A DNA stretch of 64,000 nt from Ancylonema sp. (taxonomy: Eukaryota): contig JBFLGF010000116.1 in the NCBI GenBank assembly GCA_050230475.1, forward strand, positions 1 through 64,000, read 5' to 3'. The position numbers and the translations under genes were made by a program. The notes below the pieces were generated by a model. That model did no database searches and was not told the DNA's origin. It saw nothing but the letters and a program-made list of their open reading frames with translations. Shown in pieces: positions 8,610-57,849 of this stretch (positions are counted from its first letter, which is position 1; the number at the start of each line of letters is the position of its first letter).

Positions 8610-10608
<1,999 letters not shown>

Positions 10609-12827: not shown

Positions 12828-13750
12828 CATAGTTGCACGAACCGGCTGTGTTTTTTTTTTGGAACCGGTTCCGAGATGGAACCGTTTCGGAACCGGACAA
12901 ACCGGAGGATTTTTAGGGTTTTTATCCTTCTTGCGGTAGAACATCTTTTCCCTCCTAAAAAATGTAAGCGGGGGAAATATATCATTGTACATGGTCATGT
13001 TGATGACTCCCCGTCACTTCTAGACATTAAAATTGTTAAATATTTAATCGGAAAAATATGGCACGGCCATTGCAAGTTTTAATTCGCTTTATTTCGCGCC
13101 ATGGCAGGACGTGGTGCAATTTCATTGGCAGAAAACAACACTCGGCCTTCCACTTTGACAGACACATCCAGCTTTGGAGAAGCAAGGGATGTGGAACAGA
13201 GAGGAGAAGATTATAACTATAAAAGTAGTGTTAAATCTTTGAAAGAAAGATTTGCAAGAGAAAATACATGGACGGTTGAAGCATATGTCAAGTACCATTA
13301 GATTACGGGTAAAACATCTTCTCGTAACATTTTCACTTGGAGGTATAACACGGACGTGGGAATGAGGGAATATATATGGAACGGAGATGAGCATAGGATT
13401 ATCTTAAAACGACATAACCATTTCGTTTAACTACTTGTACATAAATAGAAACATAGTTTGCAGAGAAGCGAGCAAAACATACAAATGCACCAAAAATCAT
13501 GAGGGTGTACTCATGCGGAAAATGGATTTGAGTATTTTTACAATGGGTGTCATTTGTTTGATTTTTTTGTTGGTGACGAGGTGCACCCAAAAAATACTAT
13601 TTTTCGATTTAGTCTGTGCCATATTACCCCTCAAAATGACGATGAAGTGAAAAAAACCTAAATCTTCCGGTTCCGAACCGCTGCCAATTTTGTCGGAACC
13701 GGTTCCATCTTAAATCCGGTTCGGAAACGGTTCGGTTTAAGACAACTATG
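12828..13750. mobile_element. Non-autonomous hAT element, CATAGTTG-TIR family (opposite orientation to the copies at 32318 and 40434)
   Basis: TIR CATAGTTG...CAACTATG; 8-bp TSD TTGTCTAG/TTATCTAG; subterminal GAACCGGTTCC repeats; internal homology to the other copies. Confidence 0.88.
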
Positions 13751-17110: not shown

Positions 17111-17774
17111 TAGTTTTGACAATCGACTTTATTTGTCAACAACATTAAAATAGCGTTTGACAACACGTTAATACACTTTCTCCCCTCGTGCTGAGGCTGG
17201 TGTACGTTTGGGTCATGAGTTTGGAAGTTTCACCAGTGCAATGGCCTAGGAAACCAATCTCATTATTTTGTTGTTGCTTCATGTCGATGTCATTGGTTTG
17301 TGTTGCGCACATTGTAGCTGTCTGTAATTATTTTGGCCGTAAGTTTTTAGATAGGGAAATTTTTATGTATGTTATATTATCAAGGAGAACGGAACGGATA
17401 AAGTGGACAATTTTTGCAAGTTAAATTGCAGGTTGTCCATTTGCATGTTAGATTGCAACCATCGCAATGATTTTTTTTGATCTTGTGGTTCCCTACAAGT
17501 CGTAGGCTACAAATTGTAGATTTCCTAATTTCGAAATTGTTTCAGAATGGTCATGCCATCCTTTGGATCACAACCTGAGCAAGCAACGTTGCGGCAAACC
17601 TCTGTCTCATCTTGCACTTGTGTCAAATGAGATGTGAATGCGGGATTGCAAATAATTTTTACCATATATAACGTTATAATTTTTCATGTCGGACCTTCAA
17701 TATATGGGAATGATTGTAAACGTAAATAAAGATGAAAATCGGACAATACAATATGCATGTGATCCCTCTTAGTG

Positions 17775-18178
17775 CTTTCTTCTGCCACGAATGCAAGAAT
17801 AAAGCACAACTCTCTTAATACACTCTTGAATCGACAGATCACGTCATTACAAGCGTAGACAAACCAAAAGTGCAAGCTTGAAGTAGGACGGCTGATTACA
17901 GAATCTTGCGTGCAAGTCCACACCTAGTACACAGTGATCGATCGAACATCTGAGTCAAACTATCGACACTACTCTAGTCAACACCAATCACAACTGAGCA
18001 TTGTGCCACATCAGCTAATCTTATCGACACGGGTGCTGCCTGGCCACAACTTGTCGACACAATCATTACTTGCGTGTTCGGCAGGCATTTGCTGAATTAC
18101 AACAAAACTTAAAGCTAGAACGAAGAGATATCATAAATCGATATAACAACAAAAGTTCACAGCCCCTAAAAACTAACA
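17775..18178 (-). repeat. LTR fragment of the Copia family at 33552-36066
   Basis: Colinear similarity with 33552-33969 (CAGATCACGTCATTACAA, CAAAAGTGCAAG.TTGAAGTAG, ACCTAGTACA); both start TGTTAGTTTTT.GGGGCTGTG on the minus strand. Confidence 0.8.
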
Positions 18179-18446
18179 ATCTCACGACATAGCTACGTGA
18201 ACAAGCTACGTAGCTACGTTTACTCCTAACGAGCAAGCTACGTAGCTACGTGAACATAGCTACGTTTACTCCCCTCCGTCGTAGTAAAACTCTCGCTCGT
18301 CCGCGTTGTAGTGTAGCGCGAAGAACTCCACTGGCAAGCGCAAAGCAACTTGCTCGTTCCTGTCCTCTTCTTCCCCCCCCCAATCCCGGTCACCCCCCCC
18401 TCTGAGCCTGCCCCGCAGACGTGAGGCCAAGGGTGGGGTCCGAGCC

Positions 18447-19450
18447 CTATCGGGGGTGAAGGAAGGAGAGGATGCCACCAAACAAGCGCAGCACGTGGCG
18501 GTCGATAGCCTGGCCAATCATCTGGTGGCGGGAGGCGAGGGAGACAGTGGGGCCACCGTCGGTGTCGTCTGTCTCGAAGCCCGTAAGGCGCTCCTTCTCG
18601 GCAATAGTTGGCCCTTCCTAGACGTGGTTGTAGAGGTGGCTAGGGCCCGGGCGGTTGCCAGAAGGTCGAAGCGCATGGCTGTTAGGGAACGAGACAAGGG
18701 TGGGCAGAGCGCGACGCTCTTGCCCTAGCACGTTGACGATCCTATGTGGCGGACTGTCGGTAAAGTGCAGAGCTGTGGTGTGGAACTCCTCCAGCACGGT
18801 GGTGAGGCTGGTCAAGGGGTGGTTAGGGGGAAAGAGACGACGCAGGTTTGCTGGAGACATCATGTTAGTCCAGAACCGTCGGTAACGGTGTGACAGTCCT
18901 CCTACCACGCAAGCATGAAAGGGAATACTCGGCTCACCCAAAATAACTTTGATCAATGCATCAGCATCACGCACAGCCCTTGGGGCATCATCACGAATGC
19001 ACACATTCTCAAGCAAATACAACACGGGTCTACCATCTTGACAGTCTTGAAACCACTTGAGCAAACGCACGACTTCAAGAAAGACCTAGAACCTAGCATC
19101 CTGAATGCCACGGTTGGGTCCAGCAGCACTGAACGGCTAGCATGGGAAGCCGGCCCCGAACATGTCAACGGGGCCATGATGTGCCACAAAGTTGGCCAAT
19201 TGGGTGTTAGAAATGAGACGCACTTCCTGTGGAAAACGTGTATCAAAACCAAGCAGGGTCGAAGTAGGCAAGAGATGGGGTTAGCGAAGACGAAGCTTTT
19301 GGACAAACACTTGAACAACAACAAGCACATTTGGATCTACCGTATATCAATGAAAGTATACTTGTACACCAGCAGACCTGCTTCTATTGCTTCCACCAGT
19401 TTGGGGCACCCTACCCCCCTACACACCTCTATGATATGGACACCACGAGA
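18447..19450 (-). pseudogene. C5-cytosine DNA methyltransferase domain (retroelement-borne, inactivated)
   Basis: Motif I IIEVCRGVG; IV DMFGAGFPC*PFS (Cys 19140-19142, TAG 19137-19139); VI YLLENV; VIII HRYRRFWTN; IX EKERLTGF; X MIGQAID; one frameshift near 19340 and several stops. Confidence 0.9.
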
Positions 19451-20060
19451 CTGTTGCTGAGGTGTGAGGTGTTGGACGGTGATAGTGATGGGTTGCACCC
19501 GATGAGCTTCAGGTCCAGTCCATGGAGGTAAAGGGGGAAGTGGCTCCCCTGTTGGGATGGGTGGCTGCTCAGCATCCAGGCGTTTGATGAGCTACCGGTT
19601 TACCTTTGTCTGCCGAAAGGCCCATGTGACGTTAAGTCGGGCAAGGTCCTGCGCTTCCGGACTGAGGTGGCTGGGGCTCTGGAATGAGAACCCGGGCACG
19701 TCGGGCAATTTCTTCAGCGACAGTCTGGTTGGCGACGTCGAGATCGAGCTGTTCGAGAAATGGTAGAGGTGCACGGAAGACTTGGTTGCGACGAGCAAAT
19801 AACAACGGCAAAGGTCCTACACGGTTGCCCATGTTATGACGGGACAACCGGTTCACATTTGCACAACCTGCATCTTGACCAGATCACGATGCTGCACAAG
19901 ATCCTCAAGAGGCTGACGAGCAAGAGGCATAGCACGAGTGGCAAGCACCCAGGTGGTAAGATGCTCTGTGGACTCGGCAACAACGATATCACCACGAGCA
20001 TCCTCTAGCAGATTTGCGTGAGCTTGCCACTGATCGGCTAAGTTGCGCATGACATCGACC

Positions 20061-20756
20061 TCACCTCTGACCGAAGTGACTCCCTGCGTCACCTGCATAG
20101 TTATGTAGCAAACCTGCATCCACACGTTCTCTTAGCTGGTCTGGAGTGACATAGAGGTCAAGAGGAATCCGAGCCTTGAGCTTGGCTCGCGTGTTCCAAT
20201 CAGGGACAATCTCCCAGTAGGAGTCAATGAAGTTGATGCAAGCGGTCACCCTATTGACAAAATGGGCTCCTAATAGTACATCATAGCTAGTAGCGTTGTC
20301 CACCAGCACATGCAAGAAAGCTTTGACTTCATGAATAGTTCCTAGTAAGATGATGGCTACCTTCTTTTTTAAGACACCACGGCACTTAGCTGATGCACCT
20401 AAAGCTACCGTGTACGTGATGCCTTCATTCATATCCGCATTTGTCAACCCCGTTTGGTCTGCGACCCGTTTACCTAGCATGACGAAGTTTGCACCTGTGT
20501 CCAGCACTACGCCATCCTTGGGGACCACTCCGTTGATGGTGACCACATCAGCCTCATTTGGAATGGTAAGATGCTTCCACATAACAAGGCCTCTCAGGTT
20601 CGGAGGTACAAGAGCAACATATCCATCGTCTAGTTGCAAGTGTTGCAGAGCATGGACGAGGTCGGGAAGTGTACTTGACTTACTCTTGCTGGTTGTGTGC
20701 TGTCCTAACTGACTAGAGAGAAGAGTGCGGATTTCCTCCACAAAAGCGAAGTCCAC
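20061..20756 (-). pseudogene. Retroviral-like aspartic protease region
   Basis: VVLDTGANFVML catalytic motif and YDVLLG closing motif. Confidence 0.85.
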
Positions 20757-22132
20757 CTCAACAGAATCCCAGATGAATGAAGAAACCTTGTTGAGGGGAT
20801 CGCAGGCTCAGGAGAGAAAACCTGCGGCACCCATGTCGACAGGTGGAGGAAGAGGACCGAAGTCAAGGGAACAAGTAAGATTAGGCATCCCCTCATATCC
20901 TTCATATTTTACAGATGGAAGCGTTCTTTTGACTGGGGCTCTAGGTGGAGACGGGAAAGGTGTGATTTCTCCAAAGTCAGGGAGCACAGCAAGCGCCGAA
21001 TCCCCAACACGTTTTCTCCCTTGGCCCAGACAGCTAGACACCGCTGCCCTTCCTCCTTGGTTTAGGTCTAAGGGGGTTCCTATATGCTGGCAAGATTGCT
21101 GCCCACTTGTAACAGACTATGCCTGGGACAAAATTGGACTCACGGACTCCTGAGGACAGACGCGACGAACCTATTCCTAGACTTGAGAGCAGATGTGGTG
21201 AGTGTGAAGACTTCACATTCTGTCCTTCTATTGCCGTACCGAGGGAGACTAACTGGCAAGGCATTTGAAACCTAACCTTGGCTGCTGATCTGACTGGAAA
21301 CTTGCTAGGAAAACTAGTGGCAGACTCTCTAGCTAGCATGCAAGGTTGGGGCCTATCCAAATCCCTATACATCATGCTACTAGAAGTCAGAGTGGTGCCA
21401 GCCAACTCTTCCTTCCCTACCTCTGGCAAAATGGAATGCATCTGGTCACAAGGGGACGGAGTCAGAAAGACCGGGAAGAGAGTACCATCCGATGTTGAGA
21501 GGGAGGGACTACTATGTGATGGCTGCTCATTTACTTTTCTCCCTAAGTTTAGCAGGTTGGGCACCGCTTGCTCAAATTTCCTTCCCGTGGGATTTTGGCT
21601 GAGAGAAGAGTTGCACCCCCAGTGTGAGCGGTGGAACTGCTTCGTGTCATACGAGCCTGGGCACTGGAGCACAAGTTGTTAGACACTCCCTGCTCAGGTT
21701 CTACAGGAGTTGGGCATACAGTTGCCCCGGCCTTATCTAACACTCTCGGCTAACCTGCCAGATGTTGTACAATGATGACTGAATTACCTTAGCTGCTGCG
21801 TGTGCACTCTTCACATGATCTGCAATCTCACTCAATGCAAATATGCCTGGTTCTTTTGGCAAAACATTTGACGGAGGTTCATCTTCTAGCGTAGTACCTG
21901 GCTCTAGATCACCAAAATCCCTGTGACGAAAGCTGAGGAGAAACTTGGTTGTATCACCTGATCTGCCGTAGTCTGGCCCCTGACCCCGTCCGCTGGAGGT
22001 GGTCACAGCTGCCGGTAGATGTTGGTACCGGCTGAGCGTCGACAGCGTCAGATTTTGGCTCTGGCGTCCGGGTCCGAGACGCGTCCTGGACGGTCCGGGA
22101 CGCAACTATGGTCAAAACACTTGGTATAATTA

Positions 22133-22870
22133 CAGTAAACCCTTGATATAGTGACACTTGATATAGTAACAATCACGATATAGTGACATTTTTTCTGCCC
22201 TTTTTCTAATCCTATATAAAAACCCACTCGATATAGTGACAATCGCTATAGTGACACTAGGGTGGGCACCCAGCCGCCAACCGCCAATCGCCAACTGCCC
22301 AACTGCCAGTGGGCCAACCGCCATTTCAACGGACCTCTGTCCTACCGGGATACCGCCACCCAACCGCGACCGCCAACCGTTGGCCGACCGCCAACCGTTG
22401 GGATTCTGGCGGTTGGGTCCCACCCTAAGTGACACACTGTACAATGACTCAATTTTCCCAGATTTTACTATTGAGATGTCACTACAGAGTGAAACTTGCC
22501 TAAATTAACGTTGTGAAAATTAATAACCGCCCAAATCTAATAGAAAATGATTAATGATAAATTAATAACCTGTCTGAATTAATATTTTATACATGTCCTG
22601 GCATTATTACTTCAATGAGGTTTTAATGTAGCGAGTGGATATTAGAACAAACGCCATATAGATGACTTCCCTTCTTCAATTAAAACCTCTGCGCACCCGA
22701 TCTGGTTGCTCAAAATGACCTAAAATTCACTTTCCTTCGATATAGTGACATTAGCTCAATGTCGCCCTATCAAATGTCACTATGTAGTGTATAGTGACAC
22801 CCCTGGCATTCGATATAGTGACATTATTTTCCAGTGTCTATAAAATTGTCACTATATCAAGGGTTTACTG
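22133..22870. mobile_element. Tc1/mariner (pogo-like) MITE
   Basis: Perfect 24-bp TIR CAGTAAACCCTTGATATAGTGACA; TA TSD on both sides; internal GATATAGTGAC repeats. Confidence 0.93.
22258..22427. mobile_element. 170-bp hAT MITE nested in the pogo-like MITE
   Basis: TIR TAGGGTGGG(C)ACCCA.CCGCC; perfect 8-bp TSD AGTGACAC; internal CCAACCG repeats. Confidence 0.9.
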
Positions 22871-23921
22871 TATTGATGGTCAACTGGGATAATTATTAAT
22901 TATACCATTTGCGACGAAAGAACAATGTGTGAGTTTACGATTAGTTGCCTCTTTTGGACAATTGGACCATTTTCATAATCTATGATTGGTGTCGCATTCC
23001 TCATTTGCTTCTTGTGACATATGAGAATTTCTTGGCGTCTGGTCGACGCAGTACACATTGTGTTCGTAAGCGATATATGGCCATCAACATCCCCTTCACG
23101 AGCTTTCACCAACGCAAAGTTGTCTAATGGTGACCCAACTATGATCGCTGAAATCGCTAAGCCTCCCTAGTTCGCCCTCCGATTATGCCACGTGTGCACA
23201 TCGTGATGGCCTCGGGAAAGGATGGATTAAATGACCAAATCGGCACGAATGAAATCCGCCATTTCCCTTTGTTTTTTGCCCATTATCTTTTTTTTGAATA
23301 TATCAATGAATGTTTTTTGTGAATTTTTTTTTGTGGGTGTTTTTCATCAGATACTCTGGTTACCCGGAACAAAACACGCTCAACATATGAAAGGTGGAGA
23401 TGCGTTATATGCGTCTTGTGTGGATGACGGGGGGCGTGAAATGAAATCGTGTGGTGTTCCAAGGAAAATCACGATAGCAAAGCTCGATCAAACCACACAA
23501 CCACGTTTAATTCACAACAAAACCACGGTTTTCTTACAACATAATCACGGTCAATTTACCTTTCTCGGTCAAACCCGTCTTTAAAAACGCTGCCGGGACG
23601 GAATGCTTTTGCGAGAAGCCAATAACAAACGGAAGTTCGATTTCTATTTTATTTTATTATATTTATGAACGTCCGACGGGTATTTTTCACATTAGGTCCA
23701 ACCACTATCCAGTTCGGCACGTTCTACCGTAGAGGAATTCACTCCCAAAACTTTGTGTGTTCACTAACTTTCTACGGTCGCCGGTACAAGGTGTGTAAGT
23801 GATAATGTGATACCGTGACGTCATGTAATTCTGACATCGTAAGCTAAGTGAGTGTGCAGTAAATCTGAGCGGCTTCAGAAGTAACTTACGTGTAGTTCAC
23901 AACCCTAGGGAGTGGTCAAAC

Positions 23922-24091
23922 CATAGTTGGGTCCCGGACCGTCCGGGAATCTCCGGACCCGGACCCGGATGCCACTGCCAAAATCTGACATCCATATCTT
24001 TGGAACCTCCAGATTTGAGTAAGTTCCGATTTTTTGTTTCTCTTCTGCATCTTTGTTGGGTCCCGATTCTCGCTTCCCGGACCCAACGATG
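23922..24091. mobile_element. 170-bp hAT MITE (CATAGTTG TIR); a related one-end fragment lies at ~22047-22110
   Basis: TIR CATAGTTGGGTCC / GGACCCAACGATG; perfect 8-bp TSD GGTCAAAC. Confidence 0.88.
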
Positions 24092-24380: not shown

Positions 24381-27300
24381 TCATGACAACGTCCAATATC
24401 TTTTCACACAAACCAGCAGCACCTTGTCGTCCCCCTCCACTTCATCGTCCACCATTCGCACATCCCATCGCATTGCGGACAGTAGGGGGGAGATCGCCTC
24501 CAGTGTCGCTTTATCATCACGAATAATGGCCGCTCCCTCTGGCCGCGTGATTCGGTCCATTTCGAGCAATACGGTCTCCGGGGAGCACCTAGGGAACGGA
24601 GGGGGGAGGGGGGGAGCGGAAGGGACCAAAACGAAAGTTTGGGCGACCACCATCGACCACCTTCAAGAGGGACCCTCGGACCATCTTGCGTCCTTGATTG
24701 TGGGACTCGATTCCCGTTTGCTTTGTTCCCCTCCCGGCTTACTTGCACTCATTTTACGGGTGTGGCAAGAGGCGTGAGGCAAGGGAGATAAAGTCGGACG
24801 GATTCCCATCATGTCTTTCCCTCTTTGCTCTTTTATGACCTTTTCTCTCACCCTGCCCGCCTCCATACTCTTTAAGTATGGAAGTATGGAGGCAGAAAGG
24901 GGACGCGAGTCGGACCCGCACAGGAGGGCGCCACACCATCGGTGGGAGTGGAACATTGGAAACGAGGAGGCACGAGTTTGCCAAAATCGGTGGTGCGCAT
25001 CTCGTGGGTGTGCATTGGACAGAGCAACAAAGAACGAGGAACGATGAAGAATGCAGAGTGATCATATTGGTTCGCCCCCCCCCTCTCCCCTCACCTCTTG
25101 TTCAGTTGCGAGAACACGGTGTCGCAGTGAAGGAAGTCGTAGGTACGAGGGTACGTAGAAAAGGATTCACACCTGAAAAAGAAAACAGAAGAAAAGGAAA
25201 TGAAGGGGGGTGAAACATAGCGTATTACCTCATATCCACAACCTGCCATCCCCCACCCCCATCCTGCCCTCCTGCCCTCCTGTGCTACCCCCGATGACGA
25301 TCCACCCCCCCAACCGAAACCGTGGAACCGTACAGAGGTGGACCCTGAAAATGGGTAGGAAGGTGGAGAGTGTGGGGCACACAGTGGGAATCTCCCCCCC
25401 CATTCTGACATTCTGCCATTCTACCTTCTGCCATTCTGCCATTCTGCCATTCTGCCTTCTGCCCACCGGACCGACATACACCACCCGCTATCCTCGTGGA
25501 TGGGTCTGTCCCCCTTCCCCCAACTCCCTCCCTCCCTCCCTCCCGCCCCATTCTTCCCTTCTTCCCACCAACCACTCCCTGCCCCCTCACCAGTCGTGAT
25601 AGATTCCGATGAGCCCCCTCTCGAAAATGAGCCCCAACGTGTCCACTGCGTTGTAGGGCGGCATGACGTTCATCACCCAAACAGGGTCCTCCAAAAGGGT
25701 AACCGCAAACGCACCCTGTCCCGCGTTCATGTCCATGATGTTGCGATACTCCCCCTTGCCGAACTTGGGCAGAAGGTGCGCCTTGTAGAACTTCACACAC
25801 CCCGCCCACCTCTTGTCCTCCGCCAGGAAGTGGTCCACGGTTAACCCCTTCTGGTGACCGGATCGTACCCGTGGGGGCACCACATGCGCGCGTTTCGGCC
25901 AGGGTGCGATTTCCCCCCCCGAGGTATCGCCATCTCCCCCCACTGGCTCAGGCATGCGGGTCTGGCAGTCCTTCAGGGGGGTGTACCTGGGACAGGGACA
26001 GGGACAGGGGAAATGGGAAAGGGGAAGGGGAAAGGGAGGACCTGGTGTCACCTCATAGCCGTAGCGGTCTGTCGGATGCCCTTCCCTTGTCAGAACTGAA
26101 GCCCCTTCACCCCCCCCCCCTCCTCACCACGCCAGATCCGCGTCCTCCTTTCCGTCGCAGAACTGTGGGTGCTCCCCCTCCTTTCTTTCTGCCACCTCAT
26201 CGTGGTTCCACGGTTTCTGCCACACAGCAGACTTGCGCCACTCGTCCACCTTCTTCCAACCCAACGCCTTCGCCATCCCCGTGATCCCGTCATACTCCTC
26301 CTTATACTCCTCCTTGCTCTTATCCCACCCCTTCCACATGGACTCGTAGCGGATGGGCGGACCGCTGAGCACCCAATACCCGCCCGGCCTCAATACCCGG
26401 TCCAGCTCGATGAGGAACCGCCCCCCGTCCGCGTGCCAGGGGATGAGGCAGCGCGAGCACTGCGCCAGGTCGAAGGATCGAGCCGGGTACGGTTGGCGTA
26501 CGGATGCGAATATTCCGAGTACAGCTGGCAGCCCTCTCTCCAGCGCGAACTGCACCTGCGCCTCGTGCTCGTCGCGCGGCGCCATACTCATCGTCAGAAT
26601 GTCGCGGTTTATGAGGTAGCCGCCCCAGCTCGCCACCTGGCGGAGAGGGAAGGGGGACACGTGGCGGTTGTGAGGGCCAGCCAGATGGCAATGATGACGT
26701 GGCGGGATGGATGGTTGGGTGACGACGATGAGCAGAGCACAGGGTAGTCGAGGTGAACAATGGATGGTGATTAGGCTGGGAGGATGGAGGGTTGGGGGTT
26801 GGGATTCATTCTACTTTGGAGACAGAAATGTGTTTTCACACTTCAGAAAGTGTGTCTTCACGAAGTTTTTGTGGTGGTTGCTGTTCCCAACCTTACCCCG
26901 CATCCCGTGTCGAAAGCGGTACGGATGCCTCCCCCTTCTAAAGGAAAATGGTCTGCCATGAAATCAGAGCAAGTTCAAATGAGAGGACTCGTTGTTGTAT
27001 CAGCCTTCATGGGCTTCTGCCCCACGGAGTGCTTGCCATGAAAGCTGCAGACCTGCACAGGTTTGGCCCGAACCCCTTCCTGCTACCTCCGCTACTGGCC
27101 GCTTCTGAACGACAGTGGGAACTGTGGATAGACGGTAACTGAATCCGATAAGAGCACAAGCACGCAACTGAGCTTCATGATCTGAGTCACTGCCTGACAT
27201 GATGGTGACAGAGAGAATTGACTTTCAGGGCCCCTCAAAAGTGATAACAATGTTGAGAGCAGGAGTTGGTGGAGCAGCAGTGAAATGATTGCAACCCTCA

Positions 27301-28314
27301 AAGACAAGTACAGGAAGTCGACCGTGAGTATACTGAAAATTGATACCTTCGAGAAACGGTTCGTTGCAATCAAGCTGCTTAGCGCTGAATGTAGTAAACT
27401 GTTTACCTTTAAGCTCGTCCAAGTACGTCTCCGCTCCTCCTTTCGACCCAAACTGAGTCCCTCCTCCAGGAAAAATAAACCTTTCGGTCGCCTCGTCATA
27501 TTGCACCCAGTTCTGCACAGTTGATGGAGAAATTCTACCAATTACTTTGAGGCAGCAAATTATATTGCCTATGGCCATCGATTTATGGCACCCAATGCGA
27601 TTGAGATAGGGAGCTAGGAGCAGTAAAAAGTAAAAGTGGGTGACCACTATGTAATGATTGATAGGCAGGCTTATAGAACATCCGCTAGTGTCAATAGCAA
27701 GCTCTTATTATTGAAGTATAAAACTAGACGAAAAAATTACAGAAGAAGTAGCTGGGTTGGTAGAATGTGCCTATGGTATGATAGGGAGGAGAATGTCAGA
27801 CCTGCTTCGCCTTATATTCCGCCAGCTGCTTGTTGGGAATGTTGGCATACCAGCACTCGTCTCTTGATGCCGGCCATGGCACCGGAGATTTGTATCCGGG
27901 TGGGGGAGGGATGAGGCAGTTCAGAGTTTCGTTGGGGGCTGGGCAGTGGCGTTCTCGGAATATCATTTTTTCACGAGGGAACGCGTTCCACCTGTTGGGA
28001 TCCTCACAGGGAGTGTGGTCGATGTACTTCCGTCCACACGGGGAGTACTCGGGGATCGAACTCACTTTCTCTGTTTTTACGCCTGTCTTTATGGGTGAAG
28101 TGAAATCTTGCCGATCTTTGGTCTCAGAGTCAACAAAAGATAATGAGCGGCTGGCGATTCGGCCATCGGCGCCTATGAAAGGATTTAGAAGATGCAAAGA
28201 CAGTAGAAAGATGAGAAAACACGTACAAATGTTCAATGCGTTAGCCATCTGGACTCGCATGTTGAGTGAGTCAGGAGATCGATGGGAAGTATGGTGATCA
28301 ACAAGATCGCGCAT
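24381..28314 (-). CDS. PMT/DUF248 (Methyltransf_29) Golgi SAM-dependent methyltransferase, putative pectin methyltransferase; exons 28314-27802, 27512-27407, 26952-26897, 26636-26128, 25986-25591, 25172-25095, 24588-24381
   Basis: N-terminal TM; RERHCP, FPGGGTQF, IRTAFDTGCGVASWG, APRDEHEAQVQFALERG, ELDRVLRPGGYW, RNIMDMNAG, CESFSTYPRTYD, LLEMDRITRPEG; TGA stop. Confidence 0.95.
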
Positions 28315-29254
28315 GAGCTGAAGTCATTTGCCAGATCCCTGTGCTTGCAGGGTGGGGAATCAGGGCTGCGCGGAGTACATCGCCATCAATTCAAATTTGA
28401 ACTCCGGTCCGCCATGATGCGACGTGGACCCTCTCCCCATTTCCCACCCTCCTAGGCAACTCCGGTCCTCCGCGACTTCTGCCCAATCTCGAGCACCCTT
28501 GTCCCCGATGGCGCGAGATTTCGATGTTCGGACCAAGCTCCACCCCAGCTCCACCCCAGCTCCACCCCAGCTCCACCCACGGGCAGTGTGGGAAGAAATG
28601 TCAACGTTGCCAAGGTCGTTTCTCGCCGGGAAACGCATTGAGGCTCTTCGATCGGGCTGCGAGCGCATCTGGGCTGTGGAATGCGAGCAAAGGACTCCTG
28701 CGATCCCGCAGCCCAGGCGTGTGGGTGGGCTATCGGACGGGTGGGCGGGGAACGGATAGCCGCTATCCGTTCCCGCAGCCTTCCAGGCGCTCCAGCAGGG
28801 GAGAGGCGACTTTAAGACGATTGACGAATCAGAATCGGCACTGCAATAATTGTTTGCTACTACGTCACAATTTGTGAGTGACAACATCGTTTACTGAATT
28901 ACCATGTGGGCAGAGTGGGCGTACGAATGGGGAAACCGATAACGTTTCCCGAAAAACTTCGGTCAGTTCAAGCGAGGCACGTCGATATGTTGCAAGCAAC
29001 GGGCTTTCGACCCTAGGGAAAACGGCTGACTTTCGATGCTCAGAAATTATCGGCGTCTCTCGACTAAGCACCGCGTGCTGTTGTCTGTAAACTCTTTAAA
29101 AATAGAGACCAGTATCAAAAGCATATTACCTATTACCTACAATTTTAGTCTGTCAGGAGCCCCGCATCAATCAGTCTAGTTTAGTCTGTCAGATAGTCAT
29201 TCTTTGTTTATTAATTTCTTGGGGGTTGTTCCGTATTCAACCGCATTTGCCCTC

Positions 29255-32317: not shown

Positions 32318-33253
32318 CATAGTTGCACGAACTCCGAACCGTTTCCGAACCGGATCTTAGATGGAACCGGTTCCGACAAAAGTGGCCGCGGTTTGGAACC
32401 GCGGGATTTAGGGTTTTTTCACTCAAACGGCATTTTGAGGGGCTATATAGCTCGGAAAAATCGACGAACAGTTTTTTTTTTGTCCCACTTCATTGTCTAT
32501 CCAAAAAAAAAAAAAAAACAATTGATATACATCGTGAAAAAACTCAAAACGGTTTTTTTCATGAGTGTATCTACCTGCTTTTGGTGCATTTTTCTGTTTT
32601 TCTCAATTTTGTGCACACTTTCTTGCAATTTATGTAAAAGTAGTTCTATAACAAGTTCCACTTTCAGTTTCAATCTTTTTTCAACCATCCATAAACTCCA
32701 TTCCATATATCTTTCTTCATTCCCATTCCGTGTTTTAATTCCCATGTGAAAATGTTGCGACATAATGTTGTTACCCGTTTTGTATTGCCACTCGAATTTT
32801 ATTTAACTTTCCATGTTTCTTTTATTTTCAATCGTCTACTCAAAGCTGCGGCAATCCACTGCGGCAATCCATTTATATCCACTCTCTTCCTACTCAATTC
32901 TCCTACCTTTCACATAAAGTGCTGTTTTCTGCCAACCAAAATGCACCACGTCCTGCCATGGCGCGAAATAAAGCAAATTGAAACTAACAATGGCCGCGCC
33001 ATATTTTTCCGATATTTTTTTTCACAATTTTAGCGTAAAAAATTCACAATTTTAGCGTCTCAAAATGACGTAGAGTCATCAACATGAACATTTACAACGA
33101 TTTATTTCCCCCGCGTACGTTCTTTGGGAGGGAAAAAATGTTATGCCGCGGTAAGGAGTAAAACCCTAAAAATCTCCCGGTTCGTCCGGTTCCGAAACGG
33201 TTCCATCTCGGAACCGGTTCCAAAAAAAAAAAACAGCCGTTCGTGCAACTATG
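32318..33253. mobile_element. Non-autonomous hAT element, CATAGTTG family
   Basis: TIR CATAGTTGCACGAAC / GTTCGTGCAACTATG; TSD ACTGAGAT/AGTGAGAT. Confidence 0.9.
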
Positions 33254-33551
33254 AGTGAGATAATGAATTCATCCTGAGTAGTGCCCAATGCTCCGTGGTA
33301 CGGTGTGATAGGCGGTAAAGCTGTCATATTGTCTCCCCAAATTATATGATTTCTTTGATACGTCGGTACTGCTAGAGTTGGTGACGGTGGAGTTGGTGAC
33401 GGTGGAGTCGGTGGTGGTATCGGTGTGGGTAACGGTATTTCACGGTTTGGGAGTACATGACTTTCAGGGTTGTGTGAACTTGATCGTGAGGATGGGCTGG
33501 TTGCCCTAGTAATAGGTGTTGCTCCGAATAATCGTCTAGATGGTGTGCGAA

Positions 33552-36066
33552 CTTTCTTCTGCCATCGATGCAAGAATAAAGTTCACTTCTTCTTAATCTC
33601 TTTGAATCAAACAGAATCAAGCAGATCACGTCATTACAAACGTTGACGCAACAAAAGTGCAAGTTTGAAGTAGAAAATATTGATTTAAAGAATTCAGCAT
33701 GCAAGCCCAGACCTAGTACAATCGATTGCTGCCTGGTCAAAGGATCTACTGCTATCGAAACTACTTCAATCATATCTAAGCATTCTGCCACATCAACTTG
33801 TTCTTATCGACACTTGTGCCAGATGGCCAAGTAATCATTGAAACAAGGACATCGGCCTGCAGCCGGGCTGCAACCTGCATTTGCTGAACAACGACAAAAC
33901 TAAAGCTAAATCCCCGGTATCGCTAAAATCGATGTAACGACAAAAGTACACAGCCCCCAAAAACTAACACCCCCTCCCTGGGTACTTCCGTATTCCCCCT
34001 CTAAAAACGATAACCAAAACGATATCGATTTTACAAACAACTCGCAACAAAAACTCACAAAACTTACGAACCTCTGCAAAGTATGAACCATCTACAATTA
34101 TTTTTCATACACCAACCCCACCAGATCACAATTCTTCTTCAACACCTTGACAGACAGTGGTTTTGTCAACATATCAACAGCCTGGTCTTCACTCTTGACA
34201 AACTGGAGACTTGTCTTTTTCTTGGACACCCTCTCTCGAATGGACTGATACTTGATCTCGATGTGTTTGGAGCGCTTGTGAAAAACAGGGTTCTCAGCAA
34301 GTTTCGATGAACTCTCATTGTCTCCCAGCAACAGCACACTCCCCCCACCAATACCCAACTCCTTTTGCATCTGGCTCAAATAAATGGCCTCATTTCGAGC
34401 AGCACTCAATGCCAAATACTCACTCTCACAGCTTGAGTGTGTGACTGTCTCCAGCAGACCTTCCAACTCACAGCAGCTCCTCCACTAAGAAAGACATAGC
34501 CAGTTCTCCCCTTCCTAGTGTCGACGTCGTCACCATGACTAGCATCTGAGTAACCCATGACTGGAAAATCACTACCTTTCTTATACATCAGCCCCAAATC
34601 GACAGTCCCCTTGAGGTAGCGCAAAACTCTCTTCACCCCCTCCCAATGCTTGTCGCCTGGCTTGACTGTATCGACACAAGGAGTTAACAGCAGCTGTCAG
34701 ATCAGGTCTTGTGCCAGAAGTCAGATTCAACAAACTGCCCATTGCAGACTTGTATCCCACACCCTCGATTCTAGCAGATTCAGAAGGAGATTCACAGTTT
34801 TCAAAAAAAAAAACACCCAGCTCTAGAGGAGTAGAAGCAAAATTGCAGTCTTGCATCCCAAACTTCGTGAGGAGATCTCTGGCATATTTCTCTTGCACCA
34901 AAAACACGTTGCCATCAGACTGCCGTCGAATCTCAAGCCCCAGCAAGAACTTTGCTTCCCCTAGATCTTTCATGTTATACCGCTTTCCCAGCCCTCTTTT
35001 CACCCCAAAAATAGTTCGCCAGCCTGATGCATAGGAGAAACACATCATCCACATATAGCGCCAAGTAAGTGCTTCTGGCCCTTCTCCCATAGCATAAAGG
35101 CCAAAATCTGAAGCCAGACGATGAAATTGCAAGCCTTTCAGCACGTCGTCGATGTGCTGATTCCATCCTCTCGGTGCCTGCTTGAGGCCATACAAGCACC
35201 AGAGCAGCCACACCAAATCTGCTTCACCACGCCCACACGTGCCGTCACGGGCCTCCATGTACACTTCCTCTTCCAGGGGTGCATAGAGAAAAGCTGTTGT
35301 TACATCCATCTGGTGCATGTGTAGACCCCTGGAAGCTCCCATGGCCACAAGTTGACGAATGCTCTCAAAACGAACAGTTGGAGAAAAGGTCTGATCGTAG
35401 TCCTCTCCCTCTACTTGACTGAATCCCTTAGCCACAATTCTTGCTTTGTATTTTTCTACAGAACCATCTGCATTGAATTTGATCCTGAACACCCACTTTG
35501 ACTCCACAACTTTCTTCCCCTTCGGCCTTGGCACAAGTCGATAGACATGGTTTTCTTCTTGTAGACTTGCCATTTTTGCAGCCATTGCATCTTTCCACTC
35601 AACTGCTTGTGAACTGTTAAGAGCTTCCTCCACAGTCGTTGGTGTCTTTATCTCACTTTCCAAGTTGGCAACAAAAGCAGCAGCAAATTTGTTGAGATGC
35701 ATTCCTCTGTTCTCCCTTGCAGATCGACGAACGGGCTCACGATCATCGATAGAAGTTTCTGAAAAGTTGTCGTTCACGCCAAGTGGATTAAGAGGAGTAG
35801 CATCATCTGGATACCATTCTGGACCATCTTCCAGGTGATCTTCGTCCTCATCGTCTCCACTAGAATTGCTGACAAGTTTTGGACGATCCGCACTCTGAGG
35901 AAGAGGAGATCTCGGAAGTTGTGGTAATGGATTTCCCAGAGCATCAGAGATCTCTTCATCGACAGAATTTGGATCGCCATAAGTAGGTTGCCCACCTCCA
36001 AAATTGCCCCCTCCGAGACCAACACTACTCCCTTCTGCTCCTTGATCTCTTCCATCCTTGCATTCT
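33552..36066 (-). mobile_element. Ty1/Copia 3' half: RT, RNase H, PPT and partial 3' LTR
   Basis: KWVFRIK, YKARIVAKGFSQ, QMDVTTAFL, LYGLKQAPRGW, YVDD, GYSDAS, DNESS, KRSKHIEIKY; PPT GGGAGGGGG directly before LTR start TG at 33969; frameshifts present. Confidence 0.93.
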
Positions 36067-36069
36067 GAA

Positions 36070-38513
36070 TGGCAGTGAATACCAATTCGAGACGCGGTTC
36101 CAATCACCCCTCGGTACGACATTCGTTTTAACCCTGGTGCATTGCAACGTGGACTTAACGCGTGGGTTCCTTTTGGAGGAACCAATTGTGCAGGGCTGAT
36201 AATCGTCGTGAACGCAATTACAACTGCGGTGCCTACATCAACAATGACATCAACGTCGACGCACGATCAGTGACACGAGCATTGTTGCCGAAGATTCAAG
36301 CACGTCATCCAAGACAACTTCCTTCCAGTGCAATTCGAGGATTTGACACTAGATTTCCTCATGACATTTCACAAATTTCGAATGCTCATCTTGACAGGTT
36401 CATCGGAGACAAAGGACCTATCGAGTTTATTTTTGCACGATGGGAGTGCCAAATGGTAAGCAAGGTGGGTAACCAGCAGGGGTACAAAGACGAACGGTTC
36501 CCATACTTCTTCATGTCGGGGCGTCGAAGGACTGGTTCCGAGCAAAGACGTTTCTTGAGGTCGTCGAAGCTTTGTTATTGCGGTTCGGACCAGTGCCACT
36601 TCACGTCGCCTTTGAGGAGGGCTTTGAGGAGCGCTACAATGCACGAAAGCTGAGGGACAAACTTGCGATAGTAAGAGAAAAGACCGAGTACAACACGGAG
36701 TTGATGAACATCCTTGGGTGGTGGCATGTCGCGAATGGCCCTGGTTTTCTCGTCTTGTGGAGTGATGCCTTCCGGGGTGAGTTTTTCGTCCCAGGAACTC
36801 CATTTCTTTGGCAAAGAAAAGACATTTACCAGGATGACGCTTGAGTTTGTATTGACGAAGTCTATTGAAGACTTTTTGCAGATGCATGAGATGATTTTTA
36901 AAAGTTTTACTCCAATTGGTGATGTCGTCGATGTAACATCGTGCATTGGTGAGACCATTGAGAATAGCGTCCATGGTACGCTGAAAGAAAGGTGGTGCAT
37001 TTTTTAGACCATAGGGTACCACATTCCACTCCCAGAGTTTTCGGTTAGCCCCCCAAAATGCTGTCTTTGGCTTATCCTCTTCTTTGACGGGGATCTGGTG
37101 ATATCCTTGTCGTAGGTCCATTTTGCTGAAGATTTTGGCATCATCCATCTCAACAAAAATATTTTCAAGTTTGGGTAAGGGGTACCTATCCGATGCAGTG
37201 TGACTGTTGATAGGTCGGTAGTCTCCACATTCACGAAAGTTTGTGTATTGTCCGTCTTCGTCGTTCTTGCGAACTACCACTGTTGCAGATGCATACTTTG
37301 TGTTACATGAACTAGGCCGAATCATACCAAGGTCATGCAATTTTTTACAGTTGGTTTCCACAAAGTCCCACTCTGTTTGACTGAGCTTGTGAGACCCTTG
37401 AAAGATGGAACCCGTGGTGTCAAGGGGTAACTCCATTGGTGTGTTGTTAGAAGTTCCCAGTTCTTCAAGGCTAAATGCAAAGCAATCTCGATTTGATTCA
37501 AGCAATGCTATCACTTCTGCCTTTTCTGTCGGGGTGAGATGTTCACCAATCTTCCATTGGAACTCTGTCGCCGCGGTTGTAGGTGGTAATTCCTCAGAAG
37601 GATCAAAAAGGTCATTCTCGATCCATGGCAAGGTATCCTTTGTGGTTGCAAGTAGTGCCTGACTGAGGGGAATTGCTTCATGCCGATAACGTTTCTGAGC
37701 AGAGTCAATGGTGAAAGCTGAATCCTTGTTTTCGTAAAACTCGTGCTCTTTGGTGTCGTAGTGCAGTGTATGGTACTGCTCGGGGATTTTGTAGGTGCCC
37801 CCCCCCCGCTCAATGCTCTGAGTGGTGGGGTCCGTTTCCTAACGAGGGTGTGTTGGAACCGACATAGATAGGGTGTCGATGTACGAGGGTAAATTGTGAG
37901 ATGCCATGAGAATGTCACCTACCCAGACTAACATATTTTTGTCCATGGTGCGACCAATAAGTTGACAGCGTGCACTAATGGTGATGCCTGGTGCAGCCGT
38001 GTCGCCATCCTCAAATCCCATGAGGCGTTCTCTTTCCCAAATGTTTGGTGTCTCCCATATTGCTCTGAATGCAGATTGTATACCATACCTGGTCCGGGTG
38101 AATCTCCCTCGAATCGGTACTGAATTGCCAGGGTAAGACACAATGGTTGGCATAGCTATTCGTGGTTGCCCAATCTTGTCGACCAATGCCCGGGGTGGCG
38201 TGTCATTTGTGGTGACAACTGTTGGTTTGTGGTGCAAATCAAGGATCTCAGTCAAGGGTTTCAACGGTGGAGTGGCCGGGAGTTCCAACTCTAGAATATG
38301 AGGTGGTATGAAGTTCGTCCAGAGACATCGTACTCGGTGAGCATTACGGCCGATACTGCATGCATCGACAACTGCAGGGTATCCGAGAAATGTCTTGATG
38401 AGAACTGTGGTGTCTTGGATCTCCTTCGGAAACTCGTCCGCTGCATTAAACACTTGATCAAAGTCCAGCCTTACCCACCCATCTCCGTCTTGGAGAACAC
38501 TTACCCTCACGGC
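36070..38513. mobile_element. Rearranged DNMT-bearing Gypsy element (copy 2): DNMT N-part on + (36070-36512 and 38430-38513); DNMT C-part, linker and RT inverted on - (38429-36513)
   Basis: + strand: VPFGGTNC, GFDTRFPHDIS, IFARWECQ, ERFPYFF then KLVRCIKHL...SVLENTYP. - strand: HRVRCLWTN, ERERLMGF, LIGRTMD, then RT. All segments align with copy 1. Confidence 0.88.
36513..37838 (-). pseudogene. Gypsy reverse transcriptase with upstream linker, in frame with the DNMT C-half
   Basis: DYRPIN, DRYPLP, KMDLRQGYHQI, KTAF, PYGLKNAP, YIDD; one frameshift near 36790; truncated at PVLRRPD. Confidence 0.92.
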
Positions 38514-40433: not shown

Positions 40434-41356
40434 CATAGTTGCACGAACTCCAAACCGTTTCCGAACCGGATATTAGGTCAAACCGGTTCCGCCAAAAGTG
40501 GCCGTGGTTCGGAACCGGAGGATTTAGGTTTTTTTTTTACTAACGTCATTTTGAGGGGTTATATGGCACGGAAAAACCAAAAAATGTTTTTTTCAAGTGT
40601 AGCTCGTCATGCTATATCCAACAAAAACATCAATCAAATCATATACTTTGTAAAAAACCCCAAAACGATTTCCCGCATGATTACACCTTCATGATTTTTG
40701 GTGTATTTACGTGTTTTGCTCTATCTTATGGAAACTGTGTTTCTATTCATGTACAAGTAGAAAAATGAAATGGTTATATATTTTTACGATCATCTTATGA
40801 TCATCTCCGTTCCACATATCTTTCGTCATTCCCATTGTCGTGTTGTACTTCTATGTGAAAATGTTGCGGGAAGATGTTTTACCCGTAATCAAATGGCACT
40901 TGACATAAGCTTTGATCTTCCATGTATTTCAAATCGTGCTCTCAAAGCTCTAACACTACTTCTATATCTTTACTCTTCTCCTCTACCTTAAACATCCCTT
41001 GCTTATCCAAATCCAGATATGTGTGCCAGAGTGGAAGGTCGAATGTTGTTTTCGGCCAATGAAATTGCACCACGTCCTGCCATGGCGCGAAAGAAAGCAA
41101 ATTAAAAGTTGCAATGGCCACGCCATGTTTTCCCGATAAAATATTTATCAATTTTAGCGTCTAAAAGTGACGTGGGGTCACCAACATGAACATGTACAAC
41201 GATATTATTGTCCCCGCGTATATTTTTTGGGAGGGAAAAAATGTTATACCGCGGGAAGGAGGAAACCCTTAAAGGCGCCTGGTTCCTCCGGTTCCGAAAC
41301 GGTTCCATCTCGGAACAGGTTCCAAAACAAAAACACAGCCGGTTCGTGCAACTATG
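40434..41356. mobile_element. Non-autonomous hAT element, CATAGTTG family
   Basis: 15-bp TIR CATAGTTGCACGAAC; perfect 8-bp TSD AATCTAGG. Confidence 0.93.
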
Positions 41357-41374
41357 AATCTAGGCACGAAAGTG

Positions 41375-42024
41375 AACACACCCTCATGATTTTTGGTGCA
41401 GTTGTATGTTTTGCTCGCTTCTATGCAACCTATGTTTATATTTATACACAATTAGTTCAACGAAATGTGTATATATTTTTGTGATCATCCTATTCTCATC
41501 TCCGTTCCATATGCCTTCCCTCCTTCCCATTTCCGTGTTACACTTCCATGTGAAAATATTGCTAGAATATATTTTACTCGTAATCTAATGGCACTTGACA
41601 CATGCTTCAACTTTTATGTATATTCTCTTTCAAATCGTGCTCGCAAAGCTCTAACTCTACTTCTTTAATTGTACTCTTCTCCTCTACCTTGTACATCCCT
41701 TGCTTCTCCAAAGGCAGATGTGTGTGCGAGAGTGGAAGGTCGGGTGCTGTTTTCGGCCAATGAAATTGCACCACGTCCTGCCATGGCGCAAAAGAAAGCA
41801 AATTAAAACTTCCAATGGCCGCGCCACATTTTCTCGAAAAAAATATTAAATGTATGAAAGTGACGTGGAGTCACCAACACGAACATGTACAACGATATAT
41901 ATTCCCCGCGTACATGTTTTGGGTTGGAAAAAAGGTTATACCGCGGGAAGGAGGAGAACCCTAAAATCACCCAATCTCGGAACCGGTTCCACTTGGAGAA
42001 AAAAAGCCGGTTCGTGCAATTATG
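41375..42024. mobile_element. Left-truncated copy of the same hAT family
   Basis: Colinear with ~40680-41356; ends GTTCGTGCAATTATG. Confidence 0.85.
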
Positions 42025-55900: not shown

Positions 55901-57849
55901 CGTCTTCATGCTCCCCATGAGCTTAAACCCCACCACCCCGGGGAGGACCATGCTCATGGGCTGCCCCAGCATGGCGGCCTCCGCCTCAATGCCCCCAACC
56001 CCCCACCCCGCCACACCCAGCCCGTCGATCATGGTCGTGTGGGAGTCCGTCCCCACCACGCTGTCGGGGTAGAGCACGTTCTTGTTGTTGAACACCACAC
56101 GTGCCAAGTACTCCAGGTTCACCTGAACCCCACGAGCCTGCTCAGGACCACCCCTGTGGACGGAATTCTGATGCAGGTTTTTGTTCAGTGTACCTGATGG
56201 ACGATCCCGGAGCCCGGAGGCACGACGAGCATGTTCTCAAACGCCTTGGCGCCCCATTTCAGGAACCCGAAGCGCTCCTTGTTCCTTCCGAACTCGAATG
56301 CCATGTTTTGATCCACGGCGTCAGCAGTTCGCGTCACGTCTACCTGGACTGAGTGATCGATGACAAGGTCCACAGGAATCTGTGGACACAGGCGGGGGGA
56401 GGGGACGATATTATCTGGTTGAACAAAAGATGTCGTATTGCGGCTCGTCTGTCTCTTCTCTGCTGCGACCTGAATTCGGATGCAGAAACCCTGCCATGCA
56501 ACCCGTAGCTTTCCGGCTACGCTCCCTGATTACTTCGCATTTTCGTACCTGGGGGTTGATTTTGGAAGGATCTCCTCCCAGGTCTTTCATTGCATCGCGC
56601 ATAGCAGCCAAGTCCACGACCACGGGCACCCCAGTAAAGTCCTGCAAGTGTCCGACACATCAACTTTAAAGACTCTCGGTACCGAATCAAGCCACAGACA
56701 GCTACATGGCAATACCACGTGACTTCCTCAAAGCTTGAAAACTCAGTCAGACCATCAGAAACTCCCTGCTCCCTGAAAATAATGATCGCCTCTGGGCCCG
56801 TAAATCAGCTTCACTAAAACTATCAAGTGACAGCACACGAGTGATGCCCTTGTCTAGCCATCATCCCAAATCACACGCATTAGAAAAAAAACGGCTCTGA
56901 AATGCCACGATGTCTGGCCTCACCTGCAACAGGACTCGCGCTGGCTTGAAAGCAATTTCCACCTGCTGGGGAGAAGTCTTTTCCCAGTCCAAAATTTTCT
57001 CCACATCCTTCTCATTTACTTCAAAGTTGTCACAGTTCCGGACAGCAGATTCCAGGAGGTAGAGAATGGAAATTGGTAGTTTCTCTGCAACATCGAACCG
57101 CTGCCAGTTCTGAGCGCGGCGACTCTGAGAGTGACGACTTGCAGATGACAGTGTCCTCGGGTGCAAACAAATGTAATAGCTGATTTTAATTGTTCAGACT
57201 TCTGCGTCGCTTGCGTCTCTACTCAAAGACATGTGTTGCCCACCTGCTCTCGAATCCTTTAATCCAGGGAGGCTGTAGTATTTCCCATAGACACCACCGG
57301 CAGGATTCGGCAAGTCCGTCAGAAGCTCCTTGAAAGGGTTCTCAGCTGGCCGATAAACAATACAAAGTGAGGACAATCTTAAGAAGTCCACTCCCGTTTT
57401 GCGACAAGGCTACTCCAAACGGCAAAATGGATATATCGCCAGCGCTTGCGCACCACAGGTGTGCAAACTAGACGTAATCGCCGAACCAAAAACACACAAA
57501 AGATAACAAAAACAAAAACAAACAAAAAAAAGAGCTTACCTTTAGTGGACGCCATTCTTGAGCGCGAAACGAACTTTGATTCTACCGCAGACACTGATCG
57601 ATGCTGATAGTTAACAAAAGATGGTCCGCTGCGGATGCTGGTTGAAAAGGAATGTGTTTGGGAGACGGACAGGCGAGGTACTTCCCTGACGGCAAGGTTT
57701 CCGTAAAAAGCGGAAGAAGCGAGAGCTGGAGATTCAGCTTCAGTCGCAAGACACTTAGTTCCGCTAGCACCTTTCTGGTTAAACGCGAAGGTCTGCGATA
57801 AAGTAGGCACCGCAGACTTCACTGTACGAGCGACTCGCATAACAGACAT
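52964..57849 (-). CDS. ACO: Aconitate hydratase (plant ACO/AcnA type) with N-terminal organellar transit peptide; multi-exon
   Basis: [94 protein letters not shown] stop. Confidence 0.98.

Follow-up and report, generated by a model that had tools for sequence, protein, structure and literature searches.

In the present study, we analysed a stretch of 64,000 nucleotides from Ancylonema sp. (contig JBFLGF010000116.1 of assembly GCA_050230475.1, positions 1 to 64,000; hereafter the window), which holds two copies of a Ty3/Gypsy retrotransposon with a DNMT3-type C5 cytosine methyltransferase. Judged from their sequences, copy 1 and copy 2 are dead, diverged relics whose shared in-frame stop codon, placed directly behind the methyltransferase, was probably a programmed readthrough site. 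Taken by parts, readthrough is very probable at the stops of related families in which the codons CAR-YYA follow, and fairly probable at the stops of the two subfamilies in the window. An earlier note on this DNA had described copy 1 as a Gypsy element with the methyltransferase between protease and reverse transcriptase (RT); the conserved stop, the scrambled N-terminal half of copy 2 and the lack of an own RT in copy 1 were absent from it. As that note had stated, the element is of a kind already in print, reported by de Mendoza et al. 2018 (PMC5890265); the conserved stop behind the methyltransferase was not found in print.

The stop codon behind the methyltransferase

Both copies continue after motif X of the methyltransferase with the residues HPR, the stop and xxDPT, and then with a run of G. 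Around the TAG, 23 of 30 nucleotides are identical between the copies, whereas the C-terminal halves of the two methyltransferases have a mean of 49% and a maximum of 21 of 30 in 185 windows. In copy 2 this TAG is the sole stop in the 548 codons from the methyltransferase to the end of the RT, and decay stops in copy 1 occur about once per 110 codons; from these two figures, a chance match of the stops comes to about 1% by our arithmetic.

The same arrangement was found in related loci. Locus L003 has 1162 open codons, one TAG and a further 1047 open codons, and L012 has 1369 open codons, one TAG and 1047 open codons. In L003, L012, L029 and L035 the stop falls in the same alignment column and is followed by CAA TCA, CAG TTA, CAA TCA and CAA CCA, respectively, all of the form CAR-YYA, although synonymous sites differ at 49-83% among L003, L012 and L029, which is near saturation. 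Since L037 and L010 read TAG CAA CCA, UAG-CAR-YYA is present in six related loci; the background frequency of CARYYA in four of them is 0.2-0.35% of positions. CAR-YYA is the tobamovirus readthrough signal, and viral readthrough is divided into the three classes UAG-CAR-YYA, UGA-CGG and UAG-G with a 3' structure (PMC3542737). In a family close to a Calypogeia protein, the stop is present in all 12 loci matched by a regular expression (10 TAG and 2 TAA; some of the 12 are the same locus in two assemblies), and CAA CCC follows in 11. The UGA-CGG class is represented by L005, a Klebsormidium-type locus in which the methyltransferase frame ends in FFAD and TGA CGG follows, 13 codons behind the domain; the proteins GAQ93235.1 (ending FFSD), P0023, P0036 and P0166 end where L005 has TGA CGG. 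L005 has a second stop inside the RT and is therefore a decayed copy.

The stop lies at most about 30 codons behind the methyltransferase in the window copies and L005, and 85-120 codons behind it in the CAR-YYA families. Methyltransferase and RT share one frame that is split by the TAG in copy 2, L003, L012, L029, L035 and L037; in some other subfamilies they form one uninterrupted open reading frame (ORF). RNA folding 3' of the stop beat shuffled sequences clearly in L003 only (z -3.7 and -3.2), and no such clear structure was seen in L005, L012, L029, L037 and L014.

Proposed mechanism and alternatives

It is suggested that in the active ancestors most ribosomes would have ended after Gag-protease-methyltransferase, and that a minority would have continued through the stop into RT-RNase H-integrase-PHD. 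Retroelements need Gag and Pol at about 20:1, and some achieve this ratio with an in-frame stop (PMC2194720, as described there). Here the stop would take over the role of the gag-pol recoding site, with the protease and the methyltransferase on the abundant side, so that methyltransferase would be plentiful and RT protein scarce. Each particle would thereby take up many molecules of the enzyme, which would most likely methylate new complementary DNA (cDNA) before or at integration. A readthrough stop behind the domain, if true, would set the dose of the enzyme. Many enzymes per particle, and not one per RT, would alter the published picture of a methyltransferase in the same ORF acting in cis, and would suggest that it marks the cDNA densely or acts in trans. 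The stop also explains why such elements are annotated as two genes, one for the DNMT and another for the RT, which masks how common they are. In addition, a single lineage would supply natural type I, II and III-like candidate readthrough sites.

New cDNA as the substrate is a tentative assignment, to which we give a little less than an even chance. The methylation of cDNA by the element's own enzyme was already proposed in PMC5890265. A rather doubtful alternative is that the methyltransferase serves as a non-catalytic or trans-acting module, binding DNA or RNA in the particle or methylating host or integrated DNA, and does not act on cDNA. In copy 2 (36435-36452) and in 12 of 17 relatives of layout A (protease before and/or RT after the methyltransferase), motif IV has ECQ in place of PCQ, which favours such a role; nevertheless the catalytic Cys, the Glu of ENV and the first Arg of motif VIII are invariant in all 17 layout-A proteins. 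In layout B (methyltransferase between RNase H and integrase), ECQ is seen in 47 of 83 proteins, and all 83 retain the catalytic Cys and the Glu of ENV. PMC5890265 reports that no methylation was obtained in yeast with the Klebsormidium domain, a result that its authors call inconclusive and that weighs against our proposal, but also that the related DNMT3-type domains of Symbiodinium DIRS elements methylate CG in yeast. Gag-level amounts would, we infer, exceed the need of one cDNA. The base composition of the elements is a further point against the cDNA step: their CpG ratios (0.68 and 0.81) are no lower than that of the neighbouring Copia element (0.48) or of 2 of 4 host exons, which gives no hint of additional self-methylation, and none was seen in their CpG/CHG ratios. 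In the relatives L003, L012 and L029 the methyltransferase is under purifying selection, with non-synonymous differences (pN) of 0.12-0.17 against synonymous ones (pS) of 0.67-0.83.

With regard to the stop itself, the two copies could be ordinary Gypsy-Dnmt3 relics that encoded one continuous polyprotein, the shared TAG being a coincidental decay of CAG or TGG in a conserved linker and readthrough being confined to the CAR-YYA families. We regard this as unlikely, and several findings that weigh against readthrough in the window speak for it. The window stops are not followed by CAR-YYA (TAG GGC TCG in copy 1, TAG GAA ACG in copy 2), and their junction seems to resemble only the loose type III class: G follows the TAG in both, purines occupy 7 of 8 positions in copy 2 and 5 of 8 in copy 1, and a hairpin between the CCCCACC run and the G-run is predicted in both copies, but its z-scores against shuffles (-0.3 and +0.9 in copy 1, -1.9 and -2.6 in copy 2) are not clearly better, so that strong RNA structure is not seen here. 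Decay in copy 1 has, moreover, produced TAG more often than any other stop (5 of 7). Furthermore, no stop separates the two enzymes in P0300-P0303, P0305, P0306, P0087, L032 and three proteins of Closterium, so the stop is not required throughout the lineage; among these fused relatives are those of full length that stand nearest to the window copies in both trees (P0300-P0303 and P0306). The change between stop and fused states requires at least two steps on the RT tree. P0130 and P0134, which end 10 residues behind the methyltransferase, were not counted as they are placed among the fused Closterium proteins. Gag, protease and methyltransferase in one frame are known from relatives and not from the window copies: a gag zinc knuckle is in frame with them in GAQ93235.1 and P0048, and the length of the first ORF in L003 and L012 is consistent with such an arrangement. 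Coincidental decay is opposed by the copy 2 stop, which stands alone in its long frame and at the homologous codon. Protein P0106, which differs by one residue, terminates at the HPR of copy 1, and the ends of P0002, P0004, P0016, P0077 and P0118 lie no more than a few residues from that point, for which contig ends could account. In a contig comparison (40 of 672 rows), position 37842 differs in almost all contigs and the adjoining TAG bases are not listed as variable, which may be taken as a hint.

Quite improbable is the last alternative, in which the stop is genuine but is bypassed otherwise, RT-RNase H-integrase being made from a spliced RNA, from an internal promoter or by reinitiation at a downstream AUG: the gag stop of Candida Tca2, in a context like that of murine leukaemia virus (MuLV), gave no readthrough in yeast (PMC2194720), which also weighs against our reading because simple readthrough cannot be taken for granted in such a context, and gene callers let the downstream ORF start with a Met that lies 125-216 residues ahead of the RT core, but the frame is maintained across the stop in every intact locus and CAR-YYA is kept while the encoded residue varies (Ser, Leu or Pro), a constancy that fits readthrough and is unneeded for splicing or reinitiation.

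The programmed readthrough proposed here has described counterparts. According to the descriptions in PMC3542737, PMC2194720, PMC2754532 and PMC2829016, MuLV gag-pol, tobamoviruses, alphaviruses and tobraviruses, Tca2, SIRE1 and RIRE2 have a single in-frame stop in a UAG-CAR-YYA, UGA-CGG or UAG-G context upstream of the polymerase. The readthrough stops described for retroelements lie between gag and pol or between pol and env, whereas here the stop lies behind the protease and a captured host enzyme; and unlike those elements, a single lineage holds all three signal classes in its subfamilies, beside subfamilies that are fused. PMC5890265, like its review file, places DNMT and RT of the Klebsormidium element in one ORF, and its main text does not mention readthrough, read-through, frameshift or PHD. 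Nothing was found on readthrough in DNMT-bearing retrotransposons, or on layouts B and C (the latter described below), in a literature search outside which subscription papers lay.

The two copies, their enzyme and their relatives

The features of the two copies are collected in Table 1. Copy 1 has its coding region on the minus strand (20807-18266), which reads through three frameshifts as an aspartic protease and then a C5 methyltransferase. The HMMER search for PF00145 proposed in the earlier note bore out the methyltransferase (E 6e-10, 39.5 bits, cut-off 22), and PF13975 matched the LDTGA protease; a methyltransferase profile built from relatives gave 208 bits, and the best of 20 shuffled windows gave 0. 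The full motif set that had been claimed is there as to order (I, IV, VI, VIII, IX and X), but motif I is degenerate and lies in a different frame from the others. Besides its frameshifts, copy 1 has acquired seven stops, three in the linker between protease and methyltransferase and four in the methyltransferase, one of the latter immediately behind the catalytic PC of motif IV; it is a dead relic. No RT was found in copy 1, which breaks off at about 18266 and there abuts short repetitive TAGCTACG-type filler and then a Copia-type long terminal repeat (LTR). The placement of the methyltransferase between protease and RT thus holds for the lineage and not for copy 1 itself. The likeness between its linker and that of copy 2 was recovered (18313-18272 against 37763-37725). 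No Pfam, zinc-knuckle or gag motif match was found in the upstream part of copy 1 (20810..22047).

Table 1. Positions of the features of copies 1 and 2 and of the adjoining LTR
Feature	Position	Strand	Remarks
Copy 1, likely decayed gag or gag-protease spacer	20810..22047	-	many related contigs, at depths comparable to the remaining parts; an inverted-repeat element cuts it at 22047
Copy 1, aspartic protease	20238..20552	-	LDTGA 20504-20490; gag-asp_proteas PF13975 E 1.5e-6, PF13650 E 6.6e-6
Copy 1, DNMT3-type C5 cytosine methyltransferase	18450..19435	-	usual order of motifs I-X; broken by a frameshift near 19346 and 4 stops
Copy 1, motif I-like EVCRGVGC	19429-19406	-	
Copy 1, motif IV GAGFPC	19157-19140	-	
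Copy 1, motif VI LLENV	19016-19002	-	
Copy 1, motif VIII HRYRRFWTN	18890-18864	-	
Copy 1, motif IX EKERLTGF	18599-18576	-	
Copy 1, motif X MIGQAI	18521-18504	-	
Copy 1, in-frame TAG behind methyltransferase, candidate readthrough stop	18447..18449	-	CAC CCC CGA TAG GGC TCG GAC CCC ACC
Copy 1, start of methyltransferase-RT linker with G-run, about 60 codons	18266..18446	-	element truncated here; 42% over 19 amino acids to copy 2 linker
Copia-type LTR beside the truncation, not part of the Gypsy element	17760..18178	-	70% identical to LTR 33969-33552 behind Copia purine tract
Copy 2, methyltransferase piece A, motifs I-V	36080..36512	+	motif IV is WECQ; tblastn to copy 1 E 6e-13; profile 57.5 bits
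Copy 2, methyltransferase piece B	38433..38507	+	motif VI is VLENT; contig joints
Copy 2, methyltransferase piece C, motifs VIII-X	37842..38438	-	38% identity to copy 1, E 1e-35; profile 115 bits
Copy 2, in-frame TAG behind methyltransferase, candidate readthrough stop	37839..37841	-	CAC CCT CGT TAG GAA ACG GAC CCC ACC
Copy 2, linker, Gypsy RT and tether	36513..37838	-	PF00078 E 6e-27; CGDYR 37229-37215, YIDD 36935-36924

In copy 2 the methyltransferase is complete but lies in pieces on both strands (36080-38507), and the element breaks off before the RNase H. The pieces stand in the window in the order A(+), C(-), B(+). Contigs of runs X1 and X2 connect 36512 to 38433-38437, and 38506/7 to 38438 on the opposite strand, and in protein P0056 the pieces follow each other as A-B-C; copy 2 is therefore scrambled and the other copies are collinear. 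One simple inversion was rejected, as the contig joints show three pieces. The scrambling may be a genomic event or an assembly error, with no listed contig piece spanning the rearrangement.

The earlier description of two strongly diverged subfamilies stands. Copies 1 and 2 are 36-38% identical at the protein level, and both subfamilies are multi-copy, since contigs at least 80% alike cover the copy 1 region by the thousand (2540 in X1, 5356 in X2), as thousands also do the copy 2 region; the summed depth was taken to mean many related copies and not a copy number. Neither window copy has its element ends, and terminal repeats of the A-coding-B-A-B order were seen in the relative L032. The RNA run X5 gave no contigs on copy 1 and two short pieces on Copia, which says nothing about expression.

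By sequence, profile and modelled fold, the copy 1 enzyme is a non-permuted DNMT3-type C5 methyltransferase. DNMT3 ranked first in a single-sequence search of the PDB, and in a profile search DNMT3A reached 77 bits, whereas the best match outside DNMT3 had 47.6. The predicted fold (pLDDT 91.5) was made without motif I, as this motif is in another frame, and its top Foldseek matches were DNMT3C, 3B and 3A.

An HMMER scan of 1.84 billion representatives gave 716 methyltransferase matches, the best 150 of which were listed; none of the 3112 candidates of a word-index search was a longer relative of the methyltransferase. Pfam results on 29 relatives seeded local profiles, which were then applied to the remaining relatives. 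Among 167 proteins, 164 bear the methyltransferase, and these fall into layout A (17), layout B (83), layout C, which is LINE-like (3), and those too short to class (61). Layout A has K. nitens GAQ93235.1 and Closterium as named members; layout B has Scenedesmus sp. PABB004 and Haematococcus lacustris. In layout B the order is RT-RNase H-DNMT-integrase-PHD (P0006, P0011, P0012 and P0031 among others). The layout C proteins P0096, P0147 and P0150 branch on the protease-DNMT-RT side of the methyltransferase tree, and P0096 has the order endonuclease-RT-PHD-PCIF1-DNMT-RNase H.

An RT search with copy 2 returned 26 proteins, including P0302 and P0303, which are intact from protease and DNMT through RT, RNase H and integrase to PHD; P0087 is another intact protein, from protease to integrase. 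No DNMT was detected in the gene models of the Chara, Calypogeia and Coleochaete RT relatives. A clade-specific RT pattern gave 35 loci, of which L004 and L022 were left out as chance matches without any domain. The other 33 encode RT and represent about five families, because several are the same insertion in two assemblies. The methyltransferase stands upstream of the RT in 27 of the 33, and the remaining six have less than 900 nt of upstream DNA. The linkage of DNMT to protease and RT therefore held in all 27 informative loci, as well as in intact proteins, and the separation elsewhere that would have spoken against the earlier note did not appear. An assembly artefact behind this link was rejected, since it recurs in the relatives' loci and intact proteins. 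Viral contigs gave two generic RT loci and no pattern match. The intact DNMT-Gypsy contig L003 (1-9285) sits in a cyanobacterial genome bin, most likely as eukaryotic contamination.

The trees contain neither host DNMT3 nor standard Gypsy clades. In the methyltransferase tree (a 54-row subset, and also a quick tree of 131 rows), layout B forms one side of a 95/95 branch, and the window copies share the other side with the Klebsormidium retrotransposon methyltransferases; the backbone lacks resolution and a host DNMT3 outgroup. Within a 99/97 clade with ENA proteins, the window copies are weak sisters (81/78). The RT tree has its root on six RTs of layout B; copy 2 groups there with the same ENA proteins (100/96) inside a 100/99 layout-A group. 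We propose tentatively, with the balance slightly on the other side, that in DNMT3-Gypsy elements of the green lineage the main recoding site moved more than once, with all three viral signals, to a place behind the methyltransferase, which would put the enzyme at Gag level, and that together with layout B (in chlorophytes) and layout C this may reflect one mobile DNMT3 module shifted among positions and element classes across green plants.

Among described elements, KnitGypsy-Dnmt3 of Klebsormidium is the nearest in kind, as far as PMC5890265 describes it. Both have a Gypsy RT lineage, an intronless non-permuted DNMT3-type domain and a streptophyte host, and GAQ93235.1 of K. nitens (zinc knuckle-protease-DNMT) was among the top matches, with about 36% methyltransferase identity. 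The A-coding-B-A-B order of L032 is likewise described for the Klebsormidium element, as DIRS-like split terminal repeats. The differences are that the host is not Klebsormidium, that here an in-frame stop splits DNMT and RT, and that relatives end in a PHD finger. Streptophyte Gypsy-DNMT3 elements are named again by Fernandez-Moreno et al. (bioRxiv 10.64898/2026.05.21.726589) and in section 5 of PMC12344493. The EpiLTRs of the former preprint are also LTR retrotransposons with a cytosine methyltransferase, but by its account their DNMT4-sister domain is accompanied by an adenine methyltransferase and a chromodomain, and the authors set them apart from Gypsy-DNMT3; no EpiLTR Pfam family was found in the 29 scanned relatives or in the precomputed domains of the 26 RT relatives. 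SymbioDIRS-Dnmt3 and SymbioLINE-Dnmt are alike by their description in PMC5890265 as retrotransposons bearing a cytosine methyltransferase, in different classes and hosts. The text consulted of REXdb (PMC6317226) does not mention a methyltransferase or PHD.

Other features of the window

A high-copy Copia element (PF07727) is represented at 33552-36070 by its 3' half, which includes a purine tract and an LTR, and the related lone LTR at 17760-18178 abuts copy 1; both methyltransferase relics thus adjoin this Copia family. The lone LTR was rejected as copy 1's own, because it shares 70% identity with the 3' LTR of that Copia (33969-33552), and loose contig ends at 18178 continue into the purine tract in other copies. 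Another Gypsy element lies at 1-1806, with gag, a zinc knuckle and a DSGA protease that runs straight into the pre-RT region; no methyltransferase was seen in it.

Host genes recognised by eye or by search are PRMT1-like, plant PMT-type methyltransferase-like, aconitase and TYW1-like (9304-10208, 25285-28323, 52964-57858, 60613-63325). The aconitase shares 76-83% identity with proteins of Closterium, EukProt and land plants, neither Klebsormidium nor Closterium being a close match. In its tree it joins Closterium with weak branch support and is placed apart from the groups of land plants, which suggests a streptophyte alga other than Klebsormidium nitens or Closterium as the host. The element that cuts copy 1, at 22047-23990, has terminal inverted repeats of about 70 bp (81%) and contains nested GATATAGTGAC-rich repeats at 22131-22870. 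A repeat family of about 900 bp occurs in both orientations, with 72-82% identity, at 12828-13735, 32318-33254 and 40434-41966.

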